Positions 1 through 36,559 of a DNA stretch of 37,224 nt are shown in pieces. A program made the position numbers and the translations under genes. Source of the stretch: a virus (lineage: Duplodnaviria > Heunggongvirae > Uroviricota > Caudoviricetes); the IMG/VR virus record IMGVR_UViG_3300029473_000203; one strand, 5' to 3'. Under the pieces are notes generated by a model. The model saw nothing but the letters and a program-made list of their open reading frames with translations. It did no database searches and had not been told where the DNA came from. The stretch's first letter is position 1; every line of letters starts with the position of its first letter.

Positions 1-1053
1 TTACGGGGTAATGCCAACCGCTGCCGCCACTTTGTCGCCACTTGGCAGCGTTGCCAGAGGATTGAAACGGAGCGCCGTTTCCAGATGATCTGGTGCCAGA
101 TGTGCGTAACGCATAGTCATTTTTATATCGTGGTGTCCGAGAATTTTTTGTAAGGCGAGAATGTTTCCACCCGACATCATGAAGTGCGCCGCAAACGTAT
201 GGCGCAGAACGTGTGTGAGTTGACCGCGAGGGAGCACGATAGACGTTTTTTCCATCACGGATAAAAATTGAAAATAGTAGTCTGTAAAGAAATTGAACCC
301 ATCAAGCGCCATGATCTCTTCGTAAAGCTCTTTACTGATAGGGATGCTTCTGTTTTTCTTCCCCTTCGTTCTGACAAAGGTAATTCGGTATTTGGTCACC
401 TGTGAGCGGGTAAGATTTACGGCTTCACGCCAGCGTGCGCCTGTGCTTAAGCATATCTTAACTACCAGTGCCAGAATTGGGTCCTGACGTTTGCAATCAG
501 CCAGCAATTCAACAATCTGCTCATGGGTAAGCCATGCCATCTCTTTTTCTGCGATGGTGAATTTTCGCATGTTCTCCAGTGGGTTCGGATACGACCATTC
601 GCCCAGACGGGATAGTTCGCTAAAAACACTACTTAGATAGCTTTGCTCCAAGTTAATGGTGACCGGGCTTGCTCCTTTCTTCCATTTCTCGCTGAAGTAG
701 ATCTCGCCTGTCAGGCGTTTATCTCGATAGTGGGCAAACATTTTAGAGGTGAGATCGGTTGCAAGAGGATTACCCAGAGCGTCAACCATCAACAGCAATT
801 TGTCATAGACATGCTGCCCAGCTGTCAGAGATTTACCATGTAGTTTGAACCATAGCTCAACTACGTCTTTCAGTGTTCGACGATCCACTGATTCACCCAG
901 CCAGGGCTTTGCTTCGGTTTCTTCCATCGTGTGGCGCTCAAAAGCCAGAGCTTCGCCTTTGGTGGCGAATTGTTTACGCACACGACGTCCACTACGTCCG
1001 GCGGGGTAACATTCGCAAAGCCATTTCCCTGTGGTGAGTTTTCGTACTGCCAT
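1..1053 (-). CDS. int: Phage tyrosine integrase (P2/186 Int-like)
   Basis: ORF 1..1209 minus; C-terminal region has tyrosine-recombinase motifs (ARWREA, HVLRHTFAAHF, MRYAHL); start placed at ATG giving MAVRKLTTGKW, matching the P2 Int N-terminus from memory; stop codon is at window positions 1-3. Confidence 0.9.
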   Translation of the reverse strand: MAVRKLTTGKWLCECYPAGRSGRRVRKQFATKGEALAFERHTMEETEAKPWLGESVDRRTLKDVVELWFKLHGKSLTAGQHVYDKLLLMVDALGNPLATDLTSKMFAHYRDKRLTGEIYFSEKWKKGASPVTINLEQSYLSSVFSELSRLGEWSYPNPLENMRKFTIAEKEMAWLTHEQIVELLADCKRQDPILALVVKICLSTGARWREAVNLTRSQVTKYRITFVRTKGKKNRSIPISKELYEEIMALDGFNFFTDYYFQFLSVMEKTSIVLPRGQLTHVLRHTFAAHFMMSGGNILALQKILGHHDIKMTMRYAHLAPDHLETALRFNPLATLPSGDKVAAAVGITP

Positions 1054-1241
1054 AAAAAATGCCCTCCAGTAGAGAGCATTTTTACTGTATGTATAACCAG
1101 TGTCAATGTATGAAATCCTACGACCATACATCTCACTGAAGCCATCATGAAGTTGGCTATTCTTTTTGCTATGTGAGCATGTAACTTTTGCGGTTAACCT
1201 GCGGCTCATTTTTATTTTAGACGCAGATATAAAAGCAAAAG

Positions 1242-4232: not shown

Positions 4233-5086
4233 GCACCATCCTGAAATGGGCGGGAAATAAAACCGCCATTATGTCCGAACTGAAAAAGCATCTTCCTGCT
4301 GGCCCGCGACTGGTTGAACCTTTCGCGGGTTCCTGTGCAGTGATGATGGAGACGGAGTACCCCAGCTATCTTGTTGCGGATATTAATCCTGATTTAATCA
4401 ACCTCTATAAAAAGGTTGCTGCTGATTGTGAATCGTTTATATCTCGCGCCAGAGTTTTATTTGAGATCGCAAACAGGGGGGTGGCTTATTACAACATAAG
4501 GCAGGAGTTTAATTACTCAACTGAAATTACTGATTTCATGAAAGCGGTATATTTCCTGTATCTCAATCGTCACGGTTACCGTGGTTTATGTCGCTATAAC
4601 AAGAGCGGGCATTTCAACATTCCCTACGGTAATTATAAAAATCCGTATTTCCCTGAAAAAGAAATTCGCGCATTTGCAGAAAAAGCCCAGCGAGCAACGT
4701 TTATCTGCGCCAGCTTTGATGAAACGCTGGCGATGTTGAAGGCGGGGGATGTGGTGTATTGCGATCCGCCGTATGACGGTACGTTTTCCGGCTATCACAC
4801 TGATGGTTTCACTGAAGATGACCAGTATCACCTGGCATCCGTTCTTGAACATCGGTCATCAGAAGGACATCCGGTCATTGTTTCTAACAGTGATACATCC
4901 CTGATCCGTTCGCTGTATCGCAATTTTACTCACCACTATATCAAGGTAAAACGCAGCATCGGTGTGGCAGCTGGCGAGGGTAAATCAGCAACAGAAATCA
5001 TTGCTGTTTCCGGGCCGCGCTGCTGGGTGGGATTTGATTATTCGCGTGGCGTGGATAGTTCTGCCGTGTACGGAGTACGTGCATGA
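4229..5086 (+). CDS. dam: DNA adenine methyltransferase (Dam family)
   Basis: N-terminal LKWAGNK...PFAGS (SAM-binding) and DPPY motif (CDPPYDG); start moved to ATG 4229 (MSTILKWAG) within ORF track 4169..5086; stop overlaps the repA start. Confidence 0.85.
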
Positions 5087-7497
5087 GCCATGCCGATATG
5101 AACAACTGCTGCGGCTTTAACGAGGCTGCCGCAGCGTTCTCATGGAACAGCCCGAAAAAGGCCATTAACCCTTATCTGGACCCGGCGGAAGTTGCGCCGG
5201 TTTCTGCGCTTTCAAACCTGATCGCTCTGTACGCTGCCGATAACGAGCAGGAACACCTGCGCCGCGAGGCACTGAGTGATCAGGTCTGGGAGCGTTATTT
5301 CTTTAATGAATCCCGTGATCCTGTCCAGCGCGAAATGGAGCAGGATAAGCTCATTAGTCGGGCAAAGCTGGCGCATGAGCAGCAGCGTTTTAATCCAGAT
5401 ATGGTCATTCTGGCGGACGTCAATGCCCAGCCTTCCCATATCAGCAAGCCGCTGATGCAACGTATTGAATACTTCAGCAGCTTGGGCAGGCCAAAGGCTT
5501 ATTCCCGCTATTTGCGTGAGACGATTAAGCCATGTTTGGAGCGACTGGAGCATGTACGCGACAGCCAGCTATCTGCATCTTTTCGTTTTATGGCAAGCCA
5601 TGTAGGGCTGGACGGCCTGCTGATTCTGCCTGAAATGAGTCAGGATCAGGTGAAACGCCTGTCTACTCTTGTCGCTGCGCATATGAGCATGTGTCTTGAT
5701 GCCGCTTGTGGTGATTTGTACGCCACCGATGATGTTAAGCCAGAAGAAATCCGCAAGACATGGGAAAAGGTGGCAGCAGAAACCCTGCGACTGGATGTTA
5801 TCCCGCCTGCGTTTGAGCAACTTCGTCGGAAAAGAAACCGCCGTAAACCCGTGCCCTATGAACTCATTCCGGGTTCGCTGGCGCGTATGTTGTGCGCCGA
5901 TTGGTGGTACCGGAAATTATGGAAGATGCGTTGCGAATGGCGGGAAGAGCAGTTGCGTGCTGTTTGCCTGGTCAGCAAAAAAGCATCTCCCTATGTCAGC
6001 TATGAAGCCGTGATGCATAAACGTGAGCAGCGCCGTAAGTCGCTGGAGTTTTTCCGTTCTCATGAACTGGTGAACGAAGACGGCGACACGCTGGACATGG
6101 AGGATGTGGTAAACGCCAGCAGCAGCAACCCGGCGCATCGCCGCAATGAGATGATGGCCTGTGTTAAAGGTCTGGAGCTTATCGCAGAAATGCGCAGTGA
6201 CTGTGCCGTTTTCTACACTATCACCTGTCCGTCGCGTTTCCATTCCACGCTCAATAACGGCAGACCAAACCCGACCTGGACAAACGCGACGGTAAGACAA
6301 AGCAGCGATTATCTGGTCGGCATGTTTGCTGCATTTCGTAAGGCTATGCACAAAGCCGGGTTGCGCTGGTATGGCGTGCGGGTGGCTGAACCGCATCATG
6401 ACGGCACAGTTCACTGGCACCTGTTGTGTTTCATGCGCAAAAAAGACCGCCGCGCCATTACTGCATTGTTGCGTAAGTTTGCCATCCGTGAAGACCGCGA
6501 GGAGCTGGGCAATAACACGGGGCCACGCTTTAAGTCTGAGCTGATAAACCCGCGCAAAGGTACGCCAACAAGCTACATCGCGAAATACATCAGTAAGAAC
6601 ATTGACGGGCGTGGTCTGGCTGGCGAGATCAGCAAGGAAACGGGTAAATCCCTGCGTGATAACGCTGAATACGTTAATGCCTGGGCGTCTCTGCATCGTG
6701 TTCAGCAATTCCGCTTCTTTGGCATTCCGGGGCGTCAGGCTTACCGTGAACTGCGATTGCTGGCTGGTCAGGCGGCAAGGCAACAGGGGGACAAAAAAGC
6801 AGGTGCGCCGGTACTGGATAACCCGCGCCTTGATGCAATCCTGGCTGCTGCTGATGCTGGTTGTTTTGCCACCTACATCATGAAGCAGGGCGGCGTACTG
6901 GTTCCCCGCAAATATCACCTCATCAGAACTGCTTATGAAATCAACGAAGAGCCGACCGCCTATGGCGATCACGGTATTCGTATTTATGGCATCTGGTCAC
7001 CCATTGCAGAGGGCAAGATCTGCACTCATGCGGTGAAGTGGAAAATGGTTCGTAAGGCCGTTGACGTTCAGGAGGCGGCAGCCGACCAGGGCGCTTGCGC
7101 CCCTTGGACTCGTGGCAATAACTGTCCCCTTGCTGAAAATTTGAACCAACAGGAGAAAGATAAATCAGCTGATGGGGACCCCAGAACGGACATTACCAGC
7201 ATGGATGACAAGGAGTTGCACGATTACCTGCACAGTATGAGCAAAAAAGAGCGCCGGGAACTGGCAGCAAGGTTACGCCTGGTGAAACCGAAACGGCGTA
7301 AAGACTACAAACAGCGAATTACAGACCATCAGCGACTGCAGCTCGTGTATGAGCTGAAGTCCAGAGGATTTGATGGCAGCGAGAAAGAGGTCGATTTACT
7401 CCTTCGCGGAGGCAGTATTCCGTCAGGAGCAGGCCTGCGTATCTTCTATCGGAACCAGCATTTGCAGGAAGATGATCAGTGGCGGAACCTGTATTAA
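5083..7497 (+). CDS. Replication initiation endonuclease (P2 gpA / 186 RepA-like, HUH rolling-circle)
   Basis: 804-aa ORF with HUH-like motif VHWHLLCF and tyrosine pair YIAKYISK; position after the early operon as in P2/186. Confidence 0.9.
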
Positions 7498-7589
7498 TTA
7501 CGCGGGTTAACAATTCGTGCTCTTAATAATACCAGACATATCAGGCTGATGAACGTAAAAAAACGTTTTACATCAGTAAGATTATTATA

Positions 7590-7609
7590 TACTGTAAATA
7601 TAAACAGTG
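7590..7609. promoter_or_regulatory. LexA operator (SOS box) upstream of the tum/DinI-like module
   Basis: TACTGTAAATATAAACAGTG matches consensus TACTG(TA)5CAGTA at 17 of 20 positions with correct CTG-N10-CAG spacing. Confidence 0.7.
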
Positions 7610-7650
7610 GTTATGCATACAGCATTGCGTGTGGTGTCATAGGAGGAAAG

Positions 7651-7839
7651 ATGCAGGACTATTTTTTGGAGTCTTTGAAGCTCCAGCGCATTGATTTTTT
7701 TCTTAAGCTTGTAGCGGCTAGTGAGTGTAGTGATGAAGAGAAGGGGCTGGCTCTGCAGTGGGTTTCTGAATTGACTGATGAACTCATGGCAAAAATCAGA
7801 ACCCACGAATACAACCGCTCAATGGATGTCATCAGCTGA
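7651..7839 (+). CDS. Small SOS-controlled protein (62 aa) of tum-like operon, possible antirepressor component
   Basis: ATG at 7651 preceded by AGGAGG, downstream of the LexA box; the upstream part of ORF track 7549..7839 would cover the operator and is rejected. Confidence 0.5.
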   Translation: MQDYFLESLKLQRIDFFLKLVAASECSDEEKGLALQWVSELTDELMAKIRTHEYNRSMDVIS

Positions 7840-7849
7840 GGTGACTTTT

Positions 7850-8083
7850 ATGCGCATTGAAATAATGATCGATAAAGAGCAGAAGATTAGCCAGTCTACC
7901 CTGGACGCCCTTGAATCCGAGCTTTACCGCAATCTGCGCCCCCTGTATCCCAAAACGGTAATTCGCATTCGCAAAGGTAGCTCTAACGGTGTGGAACTAA
8001 CCGGACTGCAACTGGACGAAGAAAGAAAACAAGTGATGAAAATTATGCAGAAGGTGTGGGAAGACGACAGCTGGCTGCATTAA
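7850..8083 (+). CDS. DinI-like protein (Tum C-terminal-domain-like)
   Basis: MRIEIMIDKEQ...LDALESELYRNL...VWEDDSWL resembles E. coli DinI as I recall it; ATG at 7850 within ORF track 7778..8083. Confidence 0.75.
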   Translation: MRIEIMIDKEQKISQSTLDALESELYRNLRPLYPKTVIRIRKGSSNGVELTGLQLDEERKQVMKIMQKVWEDDSWLH

Positions 8084-8088
8084 GAAAC

Positions 8089-8124
8089 GTTGCTGGCGTC
8101 AGTAATTAATTCTGACGCCAGCAC
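8089..8124. terminator. Inverted repeat between convergent operons (candidate bidirectional terminator)
   Basis: GTTGCTGGCGTCAG / loop TAATTAATT / CTGACGCCAGCAC; no strong T-tract. Confidence 0.4.
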
Positions 8125-8176
8125 GTTGAACAGCAATTAAGTCAAGGTGTTAGTTAAAAAACACCTTATAAGCCAT

Positions 8177-8860
8177 CTATGATTGAAGAGCAATCTTTCT
8201 CAACGTATCAAATACAATTTTTGTAAAATTATTTTCATTTTTAACGTCAATGTAAGCAAGAGCGTTATTAGTAATTTTAAGTTTACCAGAATACTCTAAT
8301 GAATTAACGGAGCAAACAAGTTTGTCAATTCTTATTTTCTTCCCCTCTAATTCTTCTTTATAATATTTTCTAAGGTCACTGCTGCCAATTATTTGCATTT
8401 TAGCTGTAGCGTAATCAGCGACTCTAACTCTAGAAATATCCAGCTGTGTTAGATTTATATTCACATTTGAAGATATTTCGTTGAGCCAATCCATCGGATT
8501 TATATCAATCTCTTCTAGGCTAACGCCTAAGCCAAGATTTCTGACTAAGGCCTGTGAAAACGGTTTTAACGTTCGCGGAGGGTTAGTAAGTTGCATTATA
8601 GGAAGAGTATCTAAAGATACACTGAAATTAGTAGTGCGGTATTCGACTCTTTCTACGATAGTTTCGCTTCCGTCAAAATTAGAAACTTGATCGTGATAAA
8701 TAATACGCTCAACAAAGCGTCCATGTGCAGAATCATGACGTATTTTATCAAAAATAAACCCTTTCCCCTTATCCTCGGTAAAAGAATCAAGAGAAAGACG
8801 TTTAACAGCTTTTTCAAATTCAAGCCGTATGTTTAATTTGAGCCACTTAACCTTCTTCAT
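8177..8860 (-). CDS. Cargo gene 3 of three-gene operon (227 aa, unknown function)
   Basis: Start overlaps the end of gene 2 by 14 nt; AT-rich by eye; no recognisable motif. Confidence 0.8.
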   Translation of the reverse strand: MKKVKWLKLNIRLEFEKAVKRLSLDSFTEDKGKGFIFDKIRHDSAHGRFVERIIYHDQVSNFDGSETIVERVEYRTTNFSVSLDTLPIMQLTNPPRTLKPFSQALVRNLGLGVSLEEIDINPMDWLNEISSNVNINLTQLDISRVRVADYATAKMQIIGSSDLRKYYKEELEGKKIRIDKLVCSVNSLEYSGKLKITNNALAYIDVKNENNFTKIVFDTLRKIALQS

Positions 8861-9926
8861 GTTCGTTTACCTCTGGTCCTATTATTATATTATAGGCATT
8901 TTCAGCGGCTGACTCAATTAATTCACTAATATGTCTTTTCTCTTGTGCCGTTGCCGCACGAATTGTCACATTGAATCCGTCTTCTTTTTGATTATTTATC
9001 CCTTTAATTTGATAGGCAAAGTCACAGCAATTTTCAGAGTCTTTGAAAAATGCTTCAACGTTAATTCTGTCACCAACTCCACTTGTCGGTTTTGAAGACC
9101 ATGCGATACGGCCTATATAATAACCTTTCTCGTGTAGTTGAGAAAATATAGGCGAACTATTAACACCTTCACCATTCAAAACAGCTTTCTTGACGAATCC
9201 GGTATCGATTGTTTCTTCTTTGTCTTCATCTTCACTTGCGTCAATACTGCGATTTAATTCTACTTTCGTTACATCATCAGTCTCATAACCATGTAGTCCA
9301 TTCATTAACTCTTGAAAGAACTGGCTTCGCAATGTAGGGTCAGTGATTGCCATTAAAGAAATTTCAAAACGTTCAATAGGCTCAGATTTGATTTTAGACA
9401 GCTCGTTTTGCAGACCCTCAATAACTTTTTTTGCCTCAGGATTCTGTGGCATACGTACTTCAACCTTGTCAACACCAGGGCGAAGTTCTATTATGACATT
9501 CCGTTTATCTATTTGACGCAGAGCGGTTTTAGATAAGTCTATTTCTTCATAGTTATATTCTACTGTCAGAGAACCATCTTTTTTCGCTACGATATTCAAG
9601 CTTTGCCCTTTACTGGGTGAACATGTTTTTTTCAATGCTTCAGCTGCGCTCTTTAATTCGGCCTGATTTGTTGTGGTCTGAAAACTCACACTGGTAATGC
9701 TTTCTCTTGGATCATATGTTTTGACCATCTTTTTTATATGCTCTAATTCATTAAAACCATGGGGGAGTTTTGATATTTCCTCGATAAGTATTTCCTTGTC
9801 GAGTTCTGGTGATAAAAAAACACCTCTATTTAGCAATAATTCATGTAATTTTGCAGGGGTTATTCTTTTATGATGCAAAGCATCATAAATATTCTTGTCA
9901 GTCGCAAAGTATAATTTTTTAGCCAT
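8847..9926 (-). CDS. Cargo gene 2 of three-gene operon (359 aa, unknown function)
   Basis: ATG overlaps gene 1 stop (TAATG on minus strand); acidic, Lys/Glu-rich; no Walker motif. Confidence 0.8.
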   Translation of the reverse strand: MAKKLYFATDKNIYDALHHKRITPAKLHELLLNRGVFLSPELDKEILIEEISKLPHGFNELEHIKKMVKTYDPRESITSVSFQTTTNQAELKSAAEALKKTCSPSKGQSLNIVAKKDGSLTVEYNYEEIDLSKTALRQIDKRNVIIELRPGVDKVEVRMPQNPEAKKVIEGLQNELSKIKSEPIERFEISLMAITDPTLRSQFFQELMNGLHGYETDDVTKVELNRSIDASEDEDKEETIDTGFVKKAVLNGEGVNSSPIFSQLHEKGYYIGRIAWSSKPTSGVGDRINVEAFFKDSENCCDFAYQIKGINNQKEDGFNVTIRAATAQEKRHISELIESAAENAYNIIIGPEVNEHEEG

Positions 9927-10927
9927 TATCGTTGCTCCATCCCAATTTTTTCAAGATTATATTCAACTACAACTTTGTCTGTCTTTTCGAAGTCAAATTT
10001 AAGAAAAAGTCTTTCATCCTCACCTAACAGCCAGTCTGTACTGTATTTCTTTTTAGCTTTTTCAAAATGATGAATAGCATTTTCATTTGGATGGATATGA
10101 CAATGACGTAATAAAATTGGTTTGCCTTCAGTGAGTATCTGATAAGTTGATAGCATGTCAAAAAAGTACACGAATTCATCTAATGAATCACCGGGTTGAT
10201 TGTAATAAACAACATACCCTTCTGGGATATCTTTTTTAAGCCAGCTAAAAGCCTCATGTTTAATTATGATGTATGGCGATGTTAATAATTCAATTGTCGC
10301 AGGTGTTGTTTGGTTGATGGGGTGTTTTATTCTTGTTAAAGAAAGATCTGGGTAATAGTAAGTAAACTTATCAGGCTGTGGAAGTTTTCCAGAGCCTATT
10401 AATTTGGTTATGTCAGAGGATATATTTATTAAATCAGATATTTTATAGGGGTCAAGTAAGTGTAGTTTTATGTTTGGAGGACAATTTATAACGGAATGAT
10501 CTAATTTTTTTGTAATATTTTCATAGAAATCTTTATCATATAGATTATCATGATTATACAAAAATAACAAACCTCTTACATTATAACCTAAAGAATCATC
10601 ATGAACGTATTTCAATCGCCACTCTTTACTTACATTCGCACACTCGGTAGCTAAAGCAAGTGAGGTTAAGGCACCTTCGACCATTTTTTTACCAATAGAT
10701 CCCTCCGCATAGCTCTTTAGATCTGTATTGAGATAGACCATTTCCTCTTCATAAGGGTCTGTGTAGAAAAATACAACATCACTTGGATGGGTTTTCTTGG
10801 AATGTACCTCTTGGCAACATTCCCAATTCATGTCCGCTCTAGCGGCGCGATCCCATTTGAATACAGAGAAAATATCATCAGAAATTTTACCTGCGACTCG
10901 TTGTATAGCCGAAGTTTCTCCACCCAT
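9926..10927 (-). CDS. Cargo gene 1 of three-gene operon (333 aa, unknown function; possible nuclease-like motifs)
   Basis: ATG at 10927 with AAGGAG RBS; tentative PD-(D/E)xK-like pattern (VVFFYTD ... MVYLNTDLK) and a His/Cys-rich patch RHCHIHPNENAIHH; no Walker A. Confidence 0.8.
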   Translation of the reverse strand: MGGETSAIQRVAGKISDDIFSVFKWDRAARADMNWECCQEVHSKKTHPSDVVFFYTDPYEEEMVYLNTDLKSYAEGSIGKKMVEGALTSLALATECANVSKEWRLKYVHDDSLGYNVRGLLFLYNHDNLYDKDFYENITKKLDHSVINCPPNIKLHLLDPYKISDLINISSDITKLIGSGKLPQPDKFTYYYPDLSLTRIKHPINQTTPATIELLTSPYIIIKHEAFSWLKKDIPEGYVVYYNQPGDSLDEFVYFFDMLSTYQILTEGKPILLRHCHIHPNENAIHHFEKAKKKYSTDWLLGEDERLFLKFDFEKTDKVVVEYNLEKIGMEQR

Positions 10928-11145
10928 TTTATAATCGCTCCTTTAAAATTGCTGTGGCAATCTGCCATTAAATCCATCTGATTTGATGTGTAATCTAACC
11001 GTATGGTTTGTATGTGTTTGTTGCATGACTATAGCGCATGAAAATGCATGATCGCAAAGGGATCGTTTATGTCTAGGCACTCCAGTTCTGGAGAGGCTTT
11101 GAAGAGTTCATGCGATTGCATGAAAACCACTATGTGAAGTGAGCA

Positions 11146-11164
11146 GGCGTGGCGGGGATACGAG
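11146..11164. other. cos-like cohesive-end site
   Basis: GGCGTGGCGGGGATACGAG; the first 13 nt match the 186 cos sequence GGCGTGGCGGGGAAAGCAT as I recall it; lies in a 325-bp intergenic gap a few hundred bp upstream of the ParA-like gene. Confidence 0.45.
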
Positions 11165-11261
11165 CGCGCGCATTGAGTTAAAATTTCTTGAGTTGATGAA
11201 AATAAGATGTATTTTAATTTGGCACAGAAAAACCTAATAACTCACAAGGATAATGATAATA

Positions 11262-12188
11262 ATGCAAATAGTTTCCATCATAAATTATAAAGGTGGCGTT
11301 GGTAAAACAACAGTTACGTCTAATTTAGCCGCTGAATTAGCATTCCGAGGAAAGAATGTTTTAGTTCTGGATATGGATGCTCAGGCAAGCCTGACATTTT
11401 CGTTTCTAACTCCCGATTATTGGGATGAACATCTTAAAAATGAAAGGACCATTAAAAACTGGTTTGATTGTATTAGTCAGGGAGAGCAAACAATGCCTCT
11501 TTCGACTCTAAGAGTACGACCTGAACCTGTTAATAGTAGATTTGATAGAAAAGGTGGATGTTTGGATTTAATATCTTCCCACCTCGGGTTGATAAATGTT
11601 GATCTTGAGCTTGCGACTCTTCTAGGAGGGGCTAGCCCCAGTCAAACTCAAAAAAAATATCTTAAAGTTCATGGTAAACTTAGAGAGGAACTTCAAATAC
11701 TAGCTGACGAAATGAATTATGATGTTGTTTTAATTGATTGTCCACCTAACTTTAATATCGTAACAAAAAATGCTTTGATTGCATCAGATAAGATTTTGAT
11801 ACCAGCAAAACCTGATTATTTGTCAACGCTAGGTATTGATTATTTAAAAAGAAGCGTAGATTCTCTAGTTACAGACTATAATTTCTATGCCGATAAAGAT
11901 GAAGATTATGAAAGGGTATCTCCTGAGATTCTCGGAGTAGTTTTTACTATGATTCAAATTCATTCAGAACAACCTATTGCCGCGCAAAGACAGTATATTG
12001 CGCAGACAAAACGTCTAGGTGTTCCCGTATTTGATGCTATTTTTAGGGAGAATAAAACTATCTTTGCTGATGCCCCTAGAGATGGAATTCCTGTAGCATT
12101 AATTGGCTACTCGCATTCAACTCACTCTTCTATTGTAGGAGAGATTGAGGATTTTGTTGATGAATTCCTTCAAAAGATTGGAGAATAA
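11262..12188 (+). CDS. ParA/MinD-family P-loop ATPase
   Basis: Deviant Walker A KGGVGKTT near the N-terminus, VLVLDMDAQASLT, VVLIDCPPN; AT-rich; possible start at 11253 or 11262. Confidence 0.8.
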   Translation: MQIVSIINYKGGVGKTTVTSNLAAELAFRGKNVLVLDMDAQASLTFSFLTPDYWDEHLKNERTIKNWFDCISQGEQTMPLSTLRVRPEPVNSRFDRKGGCLDLISSHLGLINVDLELATLLGGASPSQTQKKYLKVHGKLREELQILADEMNYDVVLIDCPPNFNIVTKNALIASDKILIPAKPDYLSTLGIDYLKRSVDSLVTDYNFYADKDEDYERVSPEILGVVFTMIQIHSEQPIAAQRQYIAQTKRLGVPVFDAIFRENKTIFADAPRDGIPVALIGYSHSTHSSIVGEIEDFVDEFLQKIGE

Positions 12189-12190
12189 AA

Positions 12191-12586
12191 GTGAGTAAAG
12201 CTAAAACTTTAACTGTGCTATTTCGTGAATTACAAGATGCAGTTCTTGAACTCAATGAAGGGGAATTGGAAAAAATTATTTCGGGCGAGTATCAATTCGT
12301 CCTTAAGGTAGTTAAAAAACGTAATAGTACTGGTGCAAAGATAAGTTCAGTAGATAATTTTAGCTATAACGAATTGCTTGTTTTACTTAACCAGTGTGAG
12401 TCAAGAGAACAAGGTTGCGAGCTTTTGTCGCGTGAGCTTAAGACTAAATCTGAGTTTGAAAAATTCGCTCGTCATGTCGAGGTCGCTGTAATGAAAAGCG
12501 ATAAACTCGAGAAAATTAGAGATAATATTATTGAGTCGACAGTAGGTGCTAAACTCCGCTCTGATGCTATTCAGAATAAAAAGTAA
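12191..12586 (+). CDS. Small partner protein (131 aa) of the ParA-like ATPase, unknown function
   Basis: GTG start 2 nt after the ParA-like stop, with GGAGA upstream; charged, helical-looking sequence. Confidence 0.6.
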   Translation: MSKAKTLTVLFRELQDAVLELNEGELEKIISGEYQFVLKVVKKRNSTGAKISSVDNFSYNELLVLLNQCESREQGCELLSRELKTKSEFEKFARHVEVAVMKSDKLEKIRDNIIESTVGAKLRSDAIQNKK

Positions 12587-12589
12587 TTA

Positions 12590-12612
12590 ATAGCCGCCAA
12601 TTTGGCGGCTAT
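12590..12612. terminator. Palindromic hairpin between convergent genes (candidate bidirectional terminator)
   Basis: ATAGCCGCCA / loop / TGGCGGCTAT perfect 10-bp stem flanked by T-rich sequence; sits between the 131-aa gene and the portal gene 3' ends. Confidence 0.55.
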
Positions 12613-12615
12613 TTG

Positions 12616-13644
12616 TCATAGTTCATAGTTCGTAAAATTAATGACATTTTCGCCAAGCCACCTATTTAACTCTTCTAATCGTTTCTGAAGAGGCAATAGT
12701 TCATTACGTACAAAAACCTTACTAGCCTTCTCCACATCCCCAAAACCCCCAACATTATTCGGCATAATCCCCATCATTTGTGGCGGCACACGATGCGCAG
12801 CCATCATGTCATCCCGGCTCACGTTCTTGATATTCAGAAACTCATCCTTCGCCGCGACCTCTGACAACGGGATAATCTGAAGCCCGTCCTTTTTGCCGTT
12901 AGGCGAGTACATAAACAGGTTGCGGAAGTTACCCGGTCCTTTGGCGCTTTTCATCGCGTTGCGGAGGTTGTTCACGTCCTCCTGGTTCTGCGCGGCATCG
13001 GTCATGTACATGATGAAGCCAGCATGACTGCCGTTTATGTAATACTTTCGACGGAACAGCGTGGCGGACTCATTGAGCAGGGCGGACGGAATAGCAGAAA
13101 GATAGCCGGGCAGGCCATAGATCTCCTGATTTATGTCCGGTTCCATCAGATGGAAAATGCTGCCTTTCGTGAACTGATACGGCTGCGTGGTCATGCCGTA
13201 TTGCACAAACCAGTAGGTATCCAGGTCTAACCCGCGTCGGGTGTATTTGGCCAGTGCAGGCTCAAGGGCGATAACTTCACCGAATCGGTTCGTGCGTTTC
13301 TCAAGGTAGGCGTTACCAAATACCAGATAGTCTTGCACAAAACGTGAAAAAGCCTGCTGGCTGAGCAGCGGGTGAGGGATATAGGTGCTGGTCAGAATGT
13401 TGCACTTTACTGCAATCGGTGAGCTGTGGTGTACGGCGGCGCGGAAGGTTCGCGCCAGTCCGTCGAAACTCACAGGCGGCTCATACCAGCGATCCATCTG
13501 TACGCATTCCACATAGTCCAGCAGTTCACGACGGTCCAGAACAGGAACGGGATCGCCGAAGCTGAATGCTTCGGCTGAAGTCTGGCTTTTATGCTGGATC
13601 TGATTCATCGCCGCTACGCGGTTTTTTTTACTCTTTCCCATCAA
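12616..13644 (-). CDS. Q: Portal protein (P2 gpQ-like)
   Basis: 342 aa, size and position as P2 Q, downstream of and overlapping the terminase gene on the same strand. Confidence 0.9.
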   Translation of the reverse strand: MMGKSKKNRVAAMNQIQHKSQTSAEAFSFGDPVPVLDRRELLDYVECVQMDRWYEPPVSFDGLARTFRAAVHHSSPIAVKCNILTSTYIPHPLLSQQAFSRFVQDYLVFGNAYLEKRTNRFGEVIALEPALAKYTRRGLDLDTYWFVQYGMTTQPYQFTKGSIFHLMEPDINQEIYGLPGYLSAIPSALLNESATLFRRKYYINGSHAGFIMYMTDAAQNQEDVNNLRNAMKSAKGPGNFRNLFMYSPNGKKDGLQIIPLSEVAAKDEFLNIKNVSRDDMMAAHRVPPQMMGIMPNNVGGFGDVEKASKVFVRNELLPLQKRLEELNRWLGENVINFTNYEL

Positions 13645-32963: not shown

Positions 32964-34060
32964 ATTTCAGCTCTGAACTGCTTAACAAAGGCAACAAAAC
33001 TCCGGCATTCAGCATCAGTATTGAAGGCAGGGATATCACCACTGTGCTGGACAACCGCCTGATGGGGCTGACGCTGACGGATAACCGGGGATTTGAAGCG
33101 GACCAGCTTGATCTGGAGCTGGACGACGCCGATGGAAAAATCGTGCTGCCGCGCCGTGGTGCGGTCATTACGCTGGCGCTGGGCTGGAAGGGGCAGCCGC
33201 TTTTCCCGAAAGGGGCATTCACGGTGGACGAGATTGAACACACTGGCGCACCGGACCGCCTGACTATCCGGGCGCGAAGTGCTGATTTTCGGGAAACCCT
33301 GAATACCCGCCGTGAAAAATCTTGGCACAAGACCACCGTCGGGGAAGTGGTAAAGGAAATAGCCGCGCGTCACAAGCTGAAGATGGCGCTGGGTAAAGAC
33401 CTGTCGGATAAGCCCGTGGAACATATAGACCAGACTAATGAGAGTGACGGCAGTTTTCTGATGCGGCTGGCGCGACAGTACGGTGCCATCGCGTCGGTGA
33501 AAAATGGCAATCTGCTATTCATCCGGAAGGGGCAGGGCAAAAGCGCCACTGGTAAACCACTGCCAGTGATCACTATCACACGCAAGGACGGCGACAGTCA
33601 CCGCTTTACCCTGGCAGATCGCGGAGCCTACACGGGCGTAATTGCCAGCTGGTTGCATACCCGCGAACCTGCGAAGAAAGAAAGCACCACGGTGAAGCGT
33701 AAGCGCAGAACTAAGAAGCAGAAGAAAGAGCCAGAAGCGAAGCAGGGCGATTACCTGGTGGGTACGGATGAAAACGTGCTGGTACTTAATCGCACTTATG
33801 CCAACCGGAGCAACGCCGAACGAGCGGCGAAAATGCAGTGGGAACGCCTGCAACGCGGCGTTGCGTCATTCTCGCTACAACTGGCAGAAGGGCGGGCAGA
33901 TCTCTACACGGAAATGCCAGTGAAAGTCAGTGGCTTTAAACAGCCGATAGATGATGCGGAATGGACCATTACGACTCTGACGCATACCGTCAGCCCGGAT
34001 AACGGTTTTACGACCAGTCTGGAGCTTGAAGTGAGGATTGATGATTTCGAAATGGAATGA
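32960..34060 (+). CDS. D: Tail protein / late control protein D (P2 gpD-like)
   Basis: 366 aa; GTG start overlapping the U stop; last structural gene before ogr. Confidence 0.85.
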   Translation: MNFSSELLNKGNKTPAFSISIEGRDITTVLDNRLMGLTLTDNRGFEADQLDLELDDADGKIVLPRRGAVITLALGWKGQPLFPKGAFTVDEIEHTGAPDRLTIRARSADFRETLNTRREKSWHKTTVGEVVKEIAARHKLKMALGKDLSDKPVEHIDQTNESDGSFLMRLARQYGAIASVKNGNLLFIRKGQGKSATGKPLPVITITRKDGDSHRFTLADRGAYTGVIASWLHTREPAKKESTTVKRKRRTKKQKKEPEAKQGDYLVGTDENVLVLNRTYANRSNAERAAKMQWERLQRGVASFSLQLAEGRADLYTEMPVKVSGFKQPIDDAEWTITTLTHTVSPDNGFTTSLELEVRIDDFEME

Positions 34061-34150
34061 TTCTTCGCAATGGAGAACTTTTAAGTTTGCAAAATGGAAT
34101 AATGCGGTATCATTATTGTGAATTTAGCAAAAATGGGGAGAACTCGAAAA

Positions 34151-34369
34151 ATGATGATTTGCCCACTGTGTGGAAGTGCCGCCCATACTCGCAGCAGTTT
34201 TCAGGTATCTTCATTGACCAAAGAGCGTTACAACCAGTGCCAGAACATTAACTGCAGCCATACTTTTGTTACCCATGAAACTTTTGTTCGTTCGATTGCA
34301 ACGCCAAAAGAGTCAAATCCGGTTCAGCCGCATCCAATGAAATCAGGACAGGTGGCGCTCTCTCTTTGA
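34151..34369 (+). CDS. ogr: Late gene transcriptional activator Ogr (zinc-finger)
   Basis: MMICPLCGSAAHTRSS...KERYNQCQNINCSHTF has the C-x2-C-x22-C-x4-C pattern and resembles P2 Ogr as I recall it; start at 34151 within ORF track 34118..34369. Confidence 0.8.
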   Translation: MMICPLCGSAAHTRSSFQVSSLTKERYNQCQNINCSHTFVTHETFVRSIATPKESNPVQPHPMKSGQVALSL

Positions 34370-34455
34370 CGCTGCCGCCATTTTGTCGCCATCGTTAAAA
34401 AACAGTGTTTCTAACATCATGATTTTAAACAGCTTAAATTTCAGGCAACAAAAAA

Positions 34456-34492
34456 CCCATCAACCTTGAACCGAAATGGCGGGGTTGATGGG
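34456..34492 (-). terminator. Hairpin plus T-tract on the minus strand (candidate ybjL terminator / prophage-host junction region)
   Basis: CCCATCAACC ... GGTTGATGGG inverted repeat, followed on the minus strand by TTTTTTG; the loop is long (about 17 nt), so the structure is uncertain. Confidence 0.35.
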
Positions 34493-34604
34493 CTCCACAA
34501 AATGGGGACATCAAAGAAAAGCAGTGGCACTAATTAAGACTGATGCCCTGCGGAAAAGTTCTGCGGTTGTGCAAAAAAATTTCATTTTCAGGGCAACTTC
34601 AGTT

Positions 34605-36290
34605 TTATCCTAATCCTGGCCATACCATGACGATGATTGTCCCTGCCAGCGTCAGCAGGACGTTGGCGATTGCATAGGTGCCCGCATAGCCCAGCGCCGG
34701 GATGTTACTGCGAGCTGTATCACTGATGATCTCCATTGCCGGCGCGCAGGTACGTGCGCCCATCATTGCGCCGAACAACAGCGCGCGGTTCATTCGCAAT
34801 ACATAAGCACCGAACAAGAAACAGATAACCACGGGCACCAGACTGACAATCAATCCGGCAATCAACATCTGACCGCCAATCGCGCCCAAGCCGTTATTAA
34901 TACCGCTACCGGCGCTCAGACCAACGCCTGCCATAAACACCATCAAGCCGAACTCTTTCACCATGCTTAATGCACCCTGCGGAATGTAACCGAAGGTCGG
35001 GTGGTTAGCACGCATAAAGCCCAGCATAATTCCGGCGAATAACAACCCGGCAGCGTTCCCCATGCCGAAACTGAATGTGCTGAACTGGAAGGTGATCATC
35101 CCGATCATCAGCCCAATAACAAAGAAGGCGCAAAATGCCAGCAGGTCAGTGACCTGGCTGTGAATCGAGATAAAGCCGATGCGATCGGCGATGGTTTTTA
35201 CGCGACGGGCATCACCGCTGACTTGTAAAACGTCACCTTTGTTAAGCACGACGTTGTCATCTATCGGCATCTCAATCTGGCTACGAATGACGCGGTTAAG
35301 GAAGCAACCGTGATCGGTCAACTTCAGTTGTGCGAGACGTTTACCTACAGCGTTATGGTTTTTAACGACCACTTCTTCAGTGACGATACGCATGTCGAGA
35401 AGGTCACGATCGAAAACTTCTTTACCGTTACGGAAGCTGGGATCGAGTCGGGCATGGGCGTCGGGATAGCCTACCAACGCTATTTCATCGCCCATTTGTA
35501 GCACGGCATCACCGTCTGGATTTGCCAGAATCCCGTTACGTCGAATACGTTCAATGTAGCAGCCGGTTTGTCGATAAATACCCAGTTCACGCAGATTTTT
35601 GCCGTCGGTCCAGGCCACCAGCTCCGGGCCGACGCGATAGGCGCGGATCACCGGTAAATAAACCTTACGGTTGGCATCAGTGTCCAGGCCACGTTCGCGG
35701 GCGATTTGCTGGGCGCTGGTCTGTAAGTCCTGATGCTGCAATTTCGGCAAGTAACGCGCACCAACAATCAAACTCACCAGACCGATTAAATAGGTTAAGG
35801 CATACCCGAGGCTCAGATTATCCAGTGCCAGTGAGAGCTGCCTGCTTTCCATGCCGGAATGACGCAGTGTATCGCCAGCACCGACCAGAACCGGTGTCGA
35901 CGTCATAGAGCCTGCTAACATACCGGCCGTCAGGCCAATATCCCAGCCAAACAGCTTACCTAACCCTAAGGCGATCACCAGCGCACTGCCAACCATCACC
36001 AGTGCTAACATTAGGTAATTTTTCCCATCGCGAAAAAAAATGGAAAAAAAGTTCGGTCCGGCTTCAACCCCAACACAGAAAATAAACAGCATAAAGCCAA
36101 GATTAAGCGCATCGGTGTTAATGCTGAAATGTTGTTGGCCTAATAACAGCGATACGACTAAAACGCCAATGGAATTACCCAGTTGGATCGAACCAAGTCG
36201 TAACTTTCCGAGACATAGCCCAAGCGCGAGGACCACAAATAATAACAGAATGTAATTCCCATTTAACAATTCGGCGACGTTTATATTCAC
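34605..36290 (-). CDS. ybjL: Putative transporter YbjL (host gene)
   Basis: 561-aa polytopic membrane protein with a central soluble region; matches E. coli YbjL by size and remembered sequence. Confidence 0.85.
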
Positions 36291-36559
36291 GGAGGCTAAC
36301 TTCTTGTTTACTAGTAAGCTGTTGAAAGAAATGGTAATTTACGATAATGTTTTTTACCAGAATTCAGGGCGCAGATTCATTCAGCGCACCTAAACGATAG
36401 TAAAGTAACAATATATTTTACTAGTGTAATCACATTAGGTATCAACGGCTATATGAATTGCGTTGGCCTATATTAGCATGGAATGCGAAGCGGCTTTATC
36501 TTACTGAACGCCACACTGGCGAAAAATGTGTTCGATAGACGCAGTGTCAGGAGGAACGA

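Follow-up and report, generated by a model that had tools for sequence, protein, structure and literature searches.

Rousset et al. 2022 (Cell Host Microbe, PMC9122126) took the three-gene system 3HP ("hp + hp + hp") from a P2-like prophage, in which it occupied the gpA-gpQ hotspot, and cloned it as plasmid pFR109. The system was described as three genes without predicted domains, and Escherichia coli carrying the 3HP plasmid resists phage P1, with one out of eight tested phages affected (PMC9122126). PADLOC labels the system 3HP, and the DefenseFinder label, Rst_3HP, is in use across several surveys. Our literature search found no published mechanism for 3HP, no stated link between 3HP and GAPS4, and no stated fold for Hp3.

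GAPS4 (GapS4a/GapS4b) was described by Mahata et al. (bioRxiv 2023.03.28.534373 and 2025.09.07.674715). Two genes suffice for defense, over a broad phage range. The GAPS4a/b proteins form an a2b2 complex, a non-selective DNase that aborts infection once broken or linear DNA has triggered it; incoming lambda DNA is degraded, host DNA is degraded too, and viability falls at high multiplicity of infection (bioRxiv 10.1101/2025.09.07.674715). GAPS4 also sensitizes cells to nalidixic acid. Neither GAPS4 paper mentions 3HP. Shedu and Hachiman are further PD-(D/E)xK defenses that sense DNA ends or DNA states. RdgC is a toroidal dimer that binds double-stranded DNA (dsDNA) (PMC1885664), and the RdgC-like RexA of phage lambda belongs to a phage exclusion system (PMC11077077).

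Here, we compare these systems with a three-gene operon in IMG/VR record IMGVR_UViG_3300029473_000203 (37,224 nucleotides, analyzed as a whole and called the window below). The best explanation overall, to which we assign a probability of about 85%, is a copy of 3HP that acts as a GAPS4-related DNA-sensing nuclease complex.

Identity and setting of the operon

All three PADLOC models of 3HP matched the window proteins from end to end: Hp1 (PDLC03004) with the 333-amino-acid (aa) protein (E 9e-234, 773 bits, 1-333/333), Hp2 (PDLC03005) with the 359-aa protein (E 1.5e-245, 811 bits, 1-359/359), and Hp3 (PDLC03006) with the 227-aa protein (E 5e-144, 476 bits, 1-227/227). An earlier note on this DNA, made from the sequence alone, had called the operon uncharacterized and unlike any named system and had suggested PADLOC as a check; the check returned 3HP, published in 2022, and that description falls. 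PHROG matches were phrog_7059 (Hp1), phrog_6531 (Hp2), and phrog_5850 (Hp3). The genes are adjacent and co-directional in the 3HP order, Hp1-Hp2-Hp3, with 1 nt in common at the Hp1/Hp2 junction (CGATAATGG, containing TAATG) and a 14-nt overlap between Hp2 and Hp3 (8847-8860). The same protein set (WP_063123438, WP_001579965, and WP_000756243) is present identically in Table S5A of Rousset et al. 2022. RefSeq names Hp1 (WP_063123438.1) a "PD-(D/E)XK nuclease domain-containing protein" and the other two proteins "hypothetical."

Protein identity to the tested pFR109 allele (E. coli E1114) was 94.6% for Hp1, 95.3% for Hp2, and 87.7% for Hp3, with 18, 17, and 28 substitutions, respectively (the last over 227 residues). 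The two loci share proteins, gene order, overlaps, the gpA-gpQ hotspot, and the upstream region, and they differ allelically only; the window hotspot also holds a ParA-type pair, on the opposite side of cos from the trio. The trio is almost certainly an allelic copy of 3HP with a defense function, and the anti-phage activity of the window allele would be that of its ~95%-identical counterpart, protection from P1. As a defense system, it is already known, named, and validated (2022), and as a catalogued copy in the canonical slot, the locus has little discovery value.

Feature coordinates are given in Table 1.

Table 1. Features of the 3HP locus and its surroundings, in positions of the window
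Feature	Position	Strand	Product	Remark
P2 A-type replication gene	5083-7497			
DinI-like gene	end at 8083			
AT-rich island	8084-12615			GC 0.359
Hp3 gene	8177-8860	-	227 aa	ORF call
Hp2 gene	8847-9926	-	359 aa	ORF call
Hp1 gene	9926-10927	-	333 aa	ORF call
5' leader/promoter region of operon	10928-11145	-		Between cos-like site and Hp1 start
cos-like core GGCGTGGCGGGGATACGAG	11146-11164	.		Upstream border of 3HP cargo; ~220 nt upstream of Hp1 gene
Portal gene Q	12616-13644			

Much of the earlier description of the locus stands. The three coupled minus-strand ORFs have the coordinates and both overlaps claimed for them, and the AT-richness that had been judged by eye is now computed (GC content, 0.352 for the trio and 0.359 for the whole AT-rich island, versus 0.526 for the remaining window). 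The placement in the cargo slot before cos is right because gene A and the DinI-like gene lie on one side and the cos-like core and Q on the other. The proposal that the operon is anti-phage cargo of the accessory slot of P2 is likewise borne out, by the full PADLOC matches and the published P1 protection. In P2, this slot (gene A to cos/Q) carries old and tin, which have the same role as phage exclusion cargo. Old is an ATPase-nuclease. The proteins of old and tin are nonetheless unrelated to 3HP, and profile searches with the trio gave no Old match. As cargo of the cos-proximal gpA-gpQ hotspot, 3HP would shield the lysogen of the P2-like prophage from other phages.

The cos variant was located by comparison with the pFR109 insert, with which the cos-like site has the block CGCGCGCTCGTATCCCCGCCACGCC in common. 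The core, GGCGTGGCGGGGATACGAG, matched once in the window (0 expected by chance). The exact P2 cos 19-mer had no match in the window at ≤3 mismatches, and we therefore regard the site as a variant of P2 cos, where cutting would take place. The leader is 85% identical to the upstream DNA of pFR109 (186/219 aligned positions, cos-like site counted in), and the functional clone carries its own upstream region (Rousset et al. 2022, PMC9122126). Sigma-70-like sequences at 11075-11048 and 11057-11028 (minus strand) are consensus matches only.

Homologues occur in the order Hp1-Hp2-Hp3 at 81/86 fetched loci, and the five exceptions are contig ends. Since this order is kept across many phyla, the trio does not consist of chance ORFs. 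No untruncated locus (~10 phyla) lacks any of the three genes, and Hp3 always lies beside Hp2, a constancy that argues for a function of the third gene. Out of 5,426 complete E. coli genomes, 18 carry the trio; portal/DinI-flank matches (markers of P2-like prophages) occur in ~1,244 genomes, which makes the trio variable cargo and not a core P2 function. In other taxa, the trio adjoins integrases and other defense-type genes, e.g., Abi_2.

Hp1 and Hp2 as predicted relatives of GAPS4a and GAPS4b

Hp1 is predicted, from sequence comparison, to be a PD-(D/E)xK nuclease, the effector of the system, and a distant homologue of GAPS4a. Among 138 Hp1-family sequences, E4, H47, P48, D50, D69, and K71 are 99 to 100% conserved (D69 and K71, 100%); E4 is on helix 1, strand 2 (51-57) follows D50, and strand 3 (62-73) contains D69/K71, the arrangement of the canonical fold. 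A restriction-endonuclease-like fold together with the E/D/(D/E)xK residues places Hp1 in the PD-(D/E)xK superfamily. The PD-(D/E)xK-like pattern that the earlier note had tentatively picked out was right in part: D69/K71 of its "DLK" are the fully conserved pair, whereas D57 of its "YTD" is rejected as the catalytic Asp because it is less conserved (89%; n = 138) than the invariant D50 of HPSD, which aligns with D49 of GAPS4a-RiKo. The alanine mutant of D49 is reported to be inactive (bioRxiv 10.1101/2025.09.07.674715). A His-rich patch of gene 1 (residues 275-288), also singled out in that note, is not conserved in the Hp1 family; its reading of the trio as lacking Walker A and HNH signatures agrees with our profile scans.

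Alignment of the Hp1 family with the GAPS4a family (hhalign) gave a probability of 97.4 (E 9e-12, 212 columns), and the Hp1 HMM matched 8/8 true GAPS4a sequences. NCBIfam GapS4a (NF047933; cut-off, 270 bits) had no match to window Hp1 at E ≤0.1; it matched 26 out of 63 Hp1-family members weakly (best E, 2.4e-13) and true GAPS4a with 291 bits. Precomputed matches to PF26115 (PDDEXK_GAPS4) are recorded for the Hp1 cluster representative (95% identical) and for distant relatives. A local Pfam scan of Hp1-Hp3 found no meaningful match in a Pfam copy without PF26115 and PF26110, against which true GAPS4a/b also score nothing. Searches of PDB sequences with the single proteins and the family profiles had no match for Hp1, Hp2, or Hp3. 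Shedu and Hachiman were among the matches of an Hp1 fold search. The likeness of 3HP to Shedu (SduA) and Hachiman (HamA) is conceptual, a nuclease restrained until aberrant or linear DNA appears; Shedu, however, is a single gene, Hachiman comes with a helicase, and no family relationship to 3HP was detected at the sequence level.

Hp2, a weaker relative, is predicted to be the GAPS4b-like partner, as a scaffold or sensor. For comparison, GAPS4b sequences came from two sources, the AF3 file of the GAPS4 preprint and an E. coli genome with annotation. NCBIfam GapS4b (NF047934) matched Hp2 with E 4e-5 and 22.6 bits (cut-off, 300), aligning 14-311 with 8-326/355, versus 324 bits for true GAPS4b. 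The same family matched 16/77 Hp2-family representatives, and no second family recurs. The Hp2 family aligned with two GAPS4b sequences at a probability of 58% (hhalign; E 1e-4, 209 columns), and a search of 459 ORF fragments with the Hp2 HMM had gapS4b as its sole match (E 1.3e-5). PF26110 (GAPS4b_N) has precomputed matches on the Hp2 cluster representative (94% identical) and on distant relatives. A representative-library search with the Hp2 profile found 3HP-type Hp2 only, among the best 150 matches.

The homology of Hp1 to GAPS4a covers ~210 N-terminal residues, including the catalytic Asp, and the weaker relationship of Hp2 to GAPS4b covers at least the N-terminal domain. In both systems, the nuclease gene comes first, the proteins are of similar size (333 + 359 aa in 3HP versus 308 + 385 aa in GAPS4-RiKo), and the genes are cargo of phage or satellite hotspots in E. 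coli. The differences are an active site of HPxD...DxK (with the canonical D/ExK) in Hp1 versus HGxD...SxK in GAPS4, Hp1 and Hp2 scores far below the GapS4a/b cut-offs (270/300 bits), and a third gene that all untruncated 3HP loci have and GAPS4 lacks; within 50 kb of the GAPS4 genes of E. coli PapRG-06-3, there is no Hp3-like ORF. GAPS4 is also broad in range, whereas 3HP acted on P1 only in its test.

Hp3 and the RdgC fold

Hp3 is predicted to be an RdgC-fold protein and a DNA-binding or clamp component. Structure prediction and Foldseek, which the earlier note had proposed for each protein, were run for Hp3 and found the RdgC fold: the AF2 model (pLDDT 93.3, pTM 0.85) had RdgC as its best three matches (E 1.8e-6, probability 1.00, TMq 0.54; E. 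coli and Pseudomonas aeruginosa RdgC). Two independent methods found this fold; the identity was 10% and the root mean square deviation 4.7 Å. Hp3 is ~75 residues shorter than RdgC and shares the fold without sequence similarity: hhalign of the Hp3 family with E. coli RdgC gave no signal (E 0.18 over 17 columns), and Pfam and NCBIfam had no match for Hp3. Almost no residues are conserved across the Hp3 family. Descent of Hp3 as a paralogue of Hp2, or as a part of GAPS4a/b, was considered and rejected (hhalign E 0.07-0.45).

The pI is 5.6 for Hp1, 5.3 for Hp2, and 9.1 for Hp3, and only this last, basic value is consistent with a possible ring-shaped Hp3 dimer that would bind dsDNA in its central hole. 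RexA of lambda is a parallel in that an RdgC-like DNA binder can serve in prophage exclusion.

Proposed mechanism and alternatives

What is new here is the predicted placing of Hp1 and Hp2 as distant relatives of GAPS4a/b and of Hp3 in the RdgC fold, and the remaining value of the locus is mechanistic, as these links and the strict conservation of the trio across ~10 phyla give a testable model of 3HP. In this model, Hp1 would be an Mg2+-dependent PD-(D/E)xK DNase with E4, D50, and D69-x-K71 in its active site and would pair with Hp2 after the GAPS4a/GAPS4b a2b2 model. Hp3 may supply or gate DNA recognition, e.g., by threading onto free ends or aberrant phage DNA. That Hp1 and Hp2 form a DNA-cleaving effector complex seems probable; the target may also be a nucleic acid other than DNA. 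We are more tentative about the trigger, proposed as DNA ends or damage, and about Hp3 as the DNA-binding sensor or regulator; because 3HP affected P1 only (1/8 phages) and GAPS4 is broad, the trigger may differ from that of GAPS4. An equally speculative extension has 3HP as a three-component elaboration of a GAPS4-type nuclease, in which a fast-evolving RdgC-like Hp3 ring would be the sensor of DNA ends or DNA state, or the safety clamp, that licenses the Hp1/Hp2 DNase. If true, an immune nuclease has acquired its trigger module from a bacterial fold for recombination control.

Alternatively, defense could be a non-abortive, restriction-like exclusion: Hp3 rings would thread onto linear phage DNA at its free ends as it enters and would recruit Hp1/Hp2 to degrade this DNA only, so that the host and the resident P2 prophage are spared. 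The predicted RdgC-like ring fold of Hp3 and the narrow published range (P1 only) would suit such a mode, GAPS4 also degrades incoming lambda DNA, and Shedu and Hachiman, both among the Hp1 fold matches, sense DNA ends or states. We consider it unlikely, however, in view of the attack of GAPS4 on host DNA, with lower viability at high multiplicity of infection, and a self/non-self mark for 3HP was reported in no paper that we found.

Still less likely is that the trio is a subtype of GAPS4, with Hp1/Hp2 as an a2b2 break-triggered abortive DNase and Hp3 as a dispensable passenger. The GAPS4-named Pfam families that cover Hp1 and Hp2 relatives, the profile-profile homology of Hp1 to GAPS4a and of Hp2 to GAPS4b, and the similar protein sizes (333 + 359 versus 308 + 385 aa) all fit. 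Against this, true GAPS4a/b score 291/270 and 324/300 bits, whereas Hp1 has no match and Hp2 reaches 22.6 bits; the Hp3 gene is translationally coupled and present in all untruncated loci across ~10 phyla, while GAPS4 works with two genes and has no Hp3-like ORF within 50 kb in PapRG-06-3; and both the active-site motif and the reported phage range differ.

A trio that serves the prophage, as a recombination/replication-control or addiction module made of a nuclease and an RdgC-like RecA modulator, would suit the DinI-like neighbor gene and the adjacent ParA pair, which suggests maintenance functions in the hotspot. It is highly improbable, given that a ~95%-identical allele alone on a plasmid has an anti-phage phenotype, that 18/5,426 complete E. 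coli genomes carry the trio while portal/DinI-flank matches occur in ~1,244 genomes, and that the trio elsewhere adjoins integrases and defense-type genes (Abi_2). The view that the trio is an anti-phage system new to the literature and unlike any named one would agree with two "hypothetical" RefSeq products and with no above-threshold family for Hp1-Hp3 in local Pfam and NCBIfam, but its likelihood is negligible beside full-length PADLOC matches, the 2022 publication with the exact locus in Table S5A, and a DefenseFinder name (Rst_3HP) used in several surveys.

From the comparison of 3HP with GAPS4, the GAPS4 family seems to extend beyond the two genes that define it, and the P2 and P4 hotspots both seem to house relatives of a single nuclease system. 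In E. coli, the two-gene GAPS4 is found in a hotspot of the satellite P4, and the three-gene 3HP is found in a hotspot of P2, the helper of P4.

A 3HP locus in the P2 hotspot

The three AT-rich minus-strand genes of the window (proteins Hp1, Hp2, and Hp3) are a copy, already catalogued, of the known and validated defence system 3HP at its canonical position, because they match its PADLOC models, resemble a tested clone in protein and upstream DNA, and coincide with a published P2 locus. Hp1, Hp2, and Hp3 scored 773, 811, and 476 bits, all end to end, against the PADLOC-DB models of those names, which we take to be the three genes of the system called 3HP in PADLOC and Rst_3HP in DefenseFinder. 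The latter name appears in several surveys. The earlier note had matched the trio to no named system and proposed a PADLOC search, which returned full-length matches to a known one. Clone pFR109 (listed as "hp + hp + hp" from E. coli E1114, with three protein sequences, in Table S2A of Rousset et al. 2022 [PMC9122126]) encodes proteins with 94.6%, 95.3%, and 87.7% gap-free identity to Hp1, Hp2, and Hp3, and its insert was 85% identical to the DNA upstream of gene 1 (219 aligned bases with the cos-like block). RefSeq accessions for the window proteins, taken from an E. coli chromosome (100% identical), form one P2 locus in Table S5A of the same study. The trio thus agreed with 3HP in all sequence and architecture criteria. 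P1 defence is documented for a ~95% identical allele, whose range was narrow at one out of eight phages (PMC9122126); the anti-phage role first proposed was right in kind and the observation is confirmed, but the claim of novelty is wrong, since the system was already known.

ORF coordinates, strand, sizes, and coupling were as originally described: genes 1 and 2 have one base in common at a TAATG junction, and the overlap of genes 2 and 3 is 14 nt long. The trio is indeed AT-rich against the phage backbone (GC content, 35.2%; AT-rich island 8084-12615, 35.9%; remainder of the window, 52.6%) and lies in the slot before cos, between the DinI-like gene and the cos-like core, with Q beyond. Two mechanically called plus-strand ORFs (7549-7839 and 7778-8083) exceed the RefSeq genes of an identical genome (a 189-nt hypothetical gene, phrog_698, and a 234-nt DinI-like gene); the real starts probably lie inside the ORFs, making their overlap an artefact. 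Other low-GC patches (0.37 to 0.43; 1001-2500, 34001-34500, and 36001-36500) were found toward the prophage ends, adjoining a 402-aa ORF (1-1209, minus strand) or past ~34 kb.

Features of the AT-rich hotspot and its surroundings in the window
Feature	Coordinates	Strand	Remarks
P2 A-type replication endonuclease gene	5083-7497	+	upstream of trio
Small ORF		+	between A-type gene and DinI-like gene
DinI-like gene	ends at 8083	+	
Gene 3 (Hp3)	8177-8860	-	ORF, 227 aa
Gene 2 (Hp2)	8847-9926	-	ORF, 359 aa
Gene 1 (Hp1)	9926-10927	-	ORF, 333 aa
cos-like core GGCGTGGCGGGGATACGAG	11146-11164		~220 nt upstream of gene 1
ParA/AAA_31-family ATPase gene	11253-12188	+	311 aa; second AT-rich cargo pair, GC 0.36
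131-aa ORF	12191-12586	+	without family; coupled to ParA-type ATPase gene
Perfect 11-bp G+C-rich hairpin	12589-12613		in 29-nt gap between 131-aa ORF (+) and Q (-)
Portal gene Q	12616-13644	-	

Hp1, Hp2, and the GAPS4 system

Authentic GAPS4a sequences, from the two-gene GAPS4a/GAPS4b defence system, were taken from File S1 and the AlphaFold3 file of the GAPS4 preprint (bioRxiv 10.1101/2025.09.07.674715). The Hp1 family profile matched the GAPS4a profile (probability, 97.4%; E, 9e-12; 212 columns), and the Hp1 HMM matched 8/8 GAPS4a sequences. RefSeq names Hp1 a PD-(D/E)XK nuclease domain protein, and every listed relative carries precomputed Pfam PF26115 (PDDEXK_GAPS4). Residues E4, H42, H47, P48, D50, D69, and K71 were 99 to 100% conserved (n = 138 non-identical members) and map to helix 1, the start of strand 51-57, and strand 62-73, the pattern expected for E...D...(D/E)xK. 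The tentative PD-(D/E)xK call for gene 1 was therefore right in kind (E4, D50, D69, and K71), including its DLK motif (D69 and K71). D57, the first Asp of the pattern proposed, is probably not catalytic; D50 pairs with D49 of GAPS4a-RiKo, whose D49A mutant is inactive, the conserved Asp being needed for protection (bioRxiv 10.1101/2025.09.07.674715). A His-rich patch also pointed out in gene 1 is without conservation in the Hp1 family.

Evidence linking Hp2 to GAPS4b was weaker than that linking Hp1 to GAPS4a, yet consistent with a GAPS4b-like partner. Hp2 relatives carry precomputed Pfam PF26110 (GAPS4b_N), and the NCBIfam GapS4b model, which covers Hp2 almost full length (E, 4e-5), was the sole family matched repeatedly by Hp2-family representatives (16/77). 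Compared with two authentic GAPS4b sequences (RiKo and the annotated gapS4b of E. coli PapRG-06-3), the Hp2 profile gave an E of 1e-4 over 209 columns (hhalign; cross-controls, ~0.45), and the Hp2 HMM matched the GAPS4b N-terminal domain (E, 3e-8). In a blind search of 459 ORF fragments from a 50-kb PapRG-06-3 region, gapS4a alone was significant with the Hp1 HMM (E, 9e-16), gapS4b was the sole match of the Hp2 HMM (E, 1.3e-5), and the Hp3 HMM had no significant match.

Membership in the NCBI-defined GapS4a and GapS4b families was rejected: Hp1 had no score against the GapS4a model and Hp2 reached 22.6 bits, whereas authentic GAPS4a and GAPS4b scored 291 and 324 bits, exceeding the cut-offs. 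The trio also fails the two-gene definition of GAPS4, having three genes; the active-site motif of Hp1 is unlike that of GAPS4; and the range of 3HP is narrow where that of GAPS4 is broad, a warning that the trigger may differ. We would best place 3HP beside GAPS4, as a sister lineage that has an RdgC-fold protein as an additional, obligatory subunit. 3HP is mentioned in neither of the GAPS4 papers, and no publication on its mechanism was found in the literature searched.

The annotated canonical gapS4a-gapS4b of PapRG-06-3 (NZ_CP048604.1:3057004-3059028; 37004-39028 of the 50-kb region, L090) lies in a P4-like satellite, between an integrase gene (next to tRNA-Sec) and psu, where a third gene would have no space, and no ORF within 50 kb is Hp3-like. 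This slot corresponds to the satellite hotspot for defence genes in Rousset et al. (PMC9122126); with 3HP in the P2 hotspot, a single nuclease system therefore has relatives in the hotspots of both helper phage and satellite.

Hp3 and a proposed mechanism

Hp3 had no match by sequence in family libraries or the PDB, and no sequence-level similarity to RdgC. Its AF2 model was confident (pLDDT, 93.3; pTM, 0.85), and Foldseek independently placed three RdgC chains at the top (E, about 2e-6; TMq, 0.5 to 0.54). RdgC forms a dimeric ring whose ~30 Å hole is proposed to hold dsDNA (PMC1885664), and RexA, which is the DNA-binding component of Rex exclusion in lambda, is reported to be RdgC-like (PMC11077077). 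Hp3 is basic (pI 9.1), whereas Hp1 and Hp2 are acidic. It diverges faster than its partners at all distances compared: against the tested allele (87.7% identity; partners, ~95%), against Vibrio (E, 3e-18; partners, 3e-82 and 7e-60), and family-wide (about 5 columns at least 85% conserved; Hp1, 78). Across the family, conservation is limited to a few Gly/Pro positions, a pattern that would suit a binding or scaffolding role more than catalysis.

GAPS4 defence needs both genes, is triggered by DNA breaks (e.g., from nalidixic acid), and is abortive; the a2b2 complex, in which the GAPS4b pair makes a ring-like structure, degrades phage and host DNA (bioRxiv 10.1101/2025.09.07.674715). By homology, Hp1 and Hp2 would form an equivalent nuclease complex, and Hp3 may add or gate DNA recognition, e.g., by loading onto free ends. 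Complex formation, substrate, and trigger are what we infer for 3HP, beside the demonstrated P1 defence of the ~95% identical allele. The remaining value of the trio lies in mechanistic leads only, which are cheaply testable.

Distribution and the second cargo pair

Of 5,426 complete E. coli genomes, 18 had the trio, in two allelic forms (at least 99% and ~86% nucleotide identity); the trio was also present in four Klebsiella phage records. Hp1 relatives occurred in 236 species (one genome scanned per species), and an exhaustive Hp2 profile search yielded 639 clusters at 50% identity. Iterated profiles made from alignments were used to examine 86 related loci, 81 of which had all three homologues in the order 1-2-3 on the same strand, overlapping or almost abutting; a contig end interrupts the trio in the remaining 5. 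Host groups included Gamma- and Betaproteobacteria, Desulfobacterota, Cyanobacteria, Bacteroidota, Caldiserica, Patescibacteria, Bacillota, and Verrucomicrobiota. Strict conservation of this rare, widespread three-gene unit argues for a functional Hp3. Not all 18 E. coli records are chromosomes: NZ_CP148400.1 and NZ_CP148585.1, both with the ~86% allele, are plasmids of ~55 kb and may be P2-like elements maintained in that form.

The cos-like core cuts the AT-rich hotspot into two parts, leaving 3HP toward gene A and the ParA pair toward Q, and the two would consequently lie at opposite ends of the packaged linear genome. The core is not identical to the P2 cos 19-mer. The sole PADLOC match of the ParA-type pair was a weak P-loop one to PDC-M28B; the pair is probably the "putative plasmid partitioning system" reported in roughly one in four P2-like phages (Rousset et al., PMC9122126). 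The hairpin beyond it resembles a terminator serving both the 131-aa ORF and Q, which converge there.
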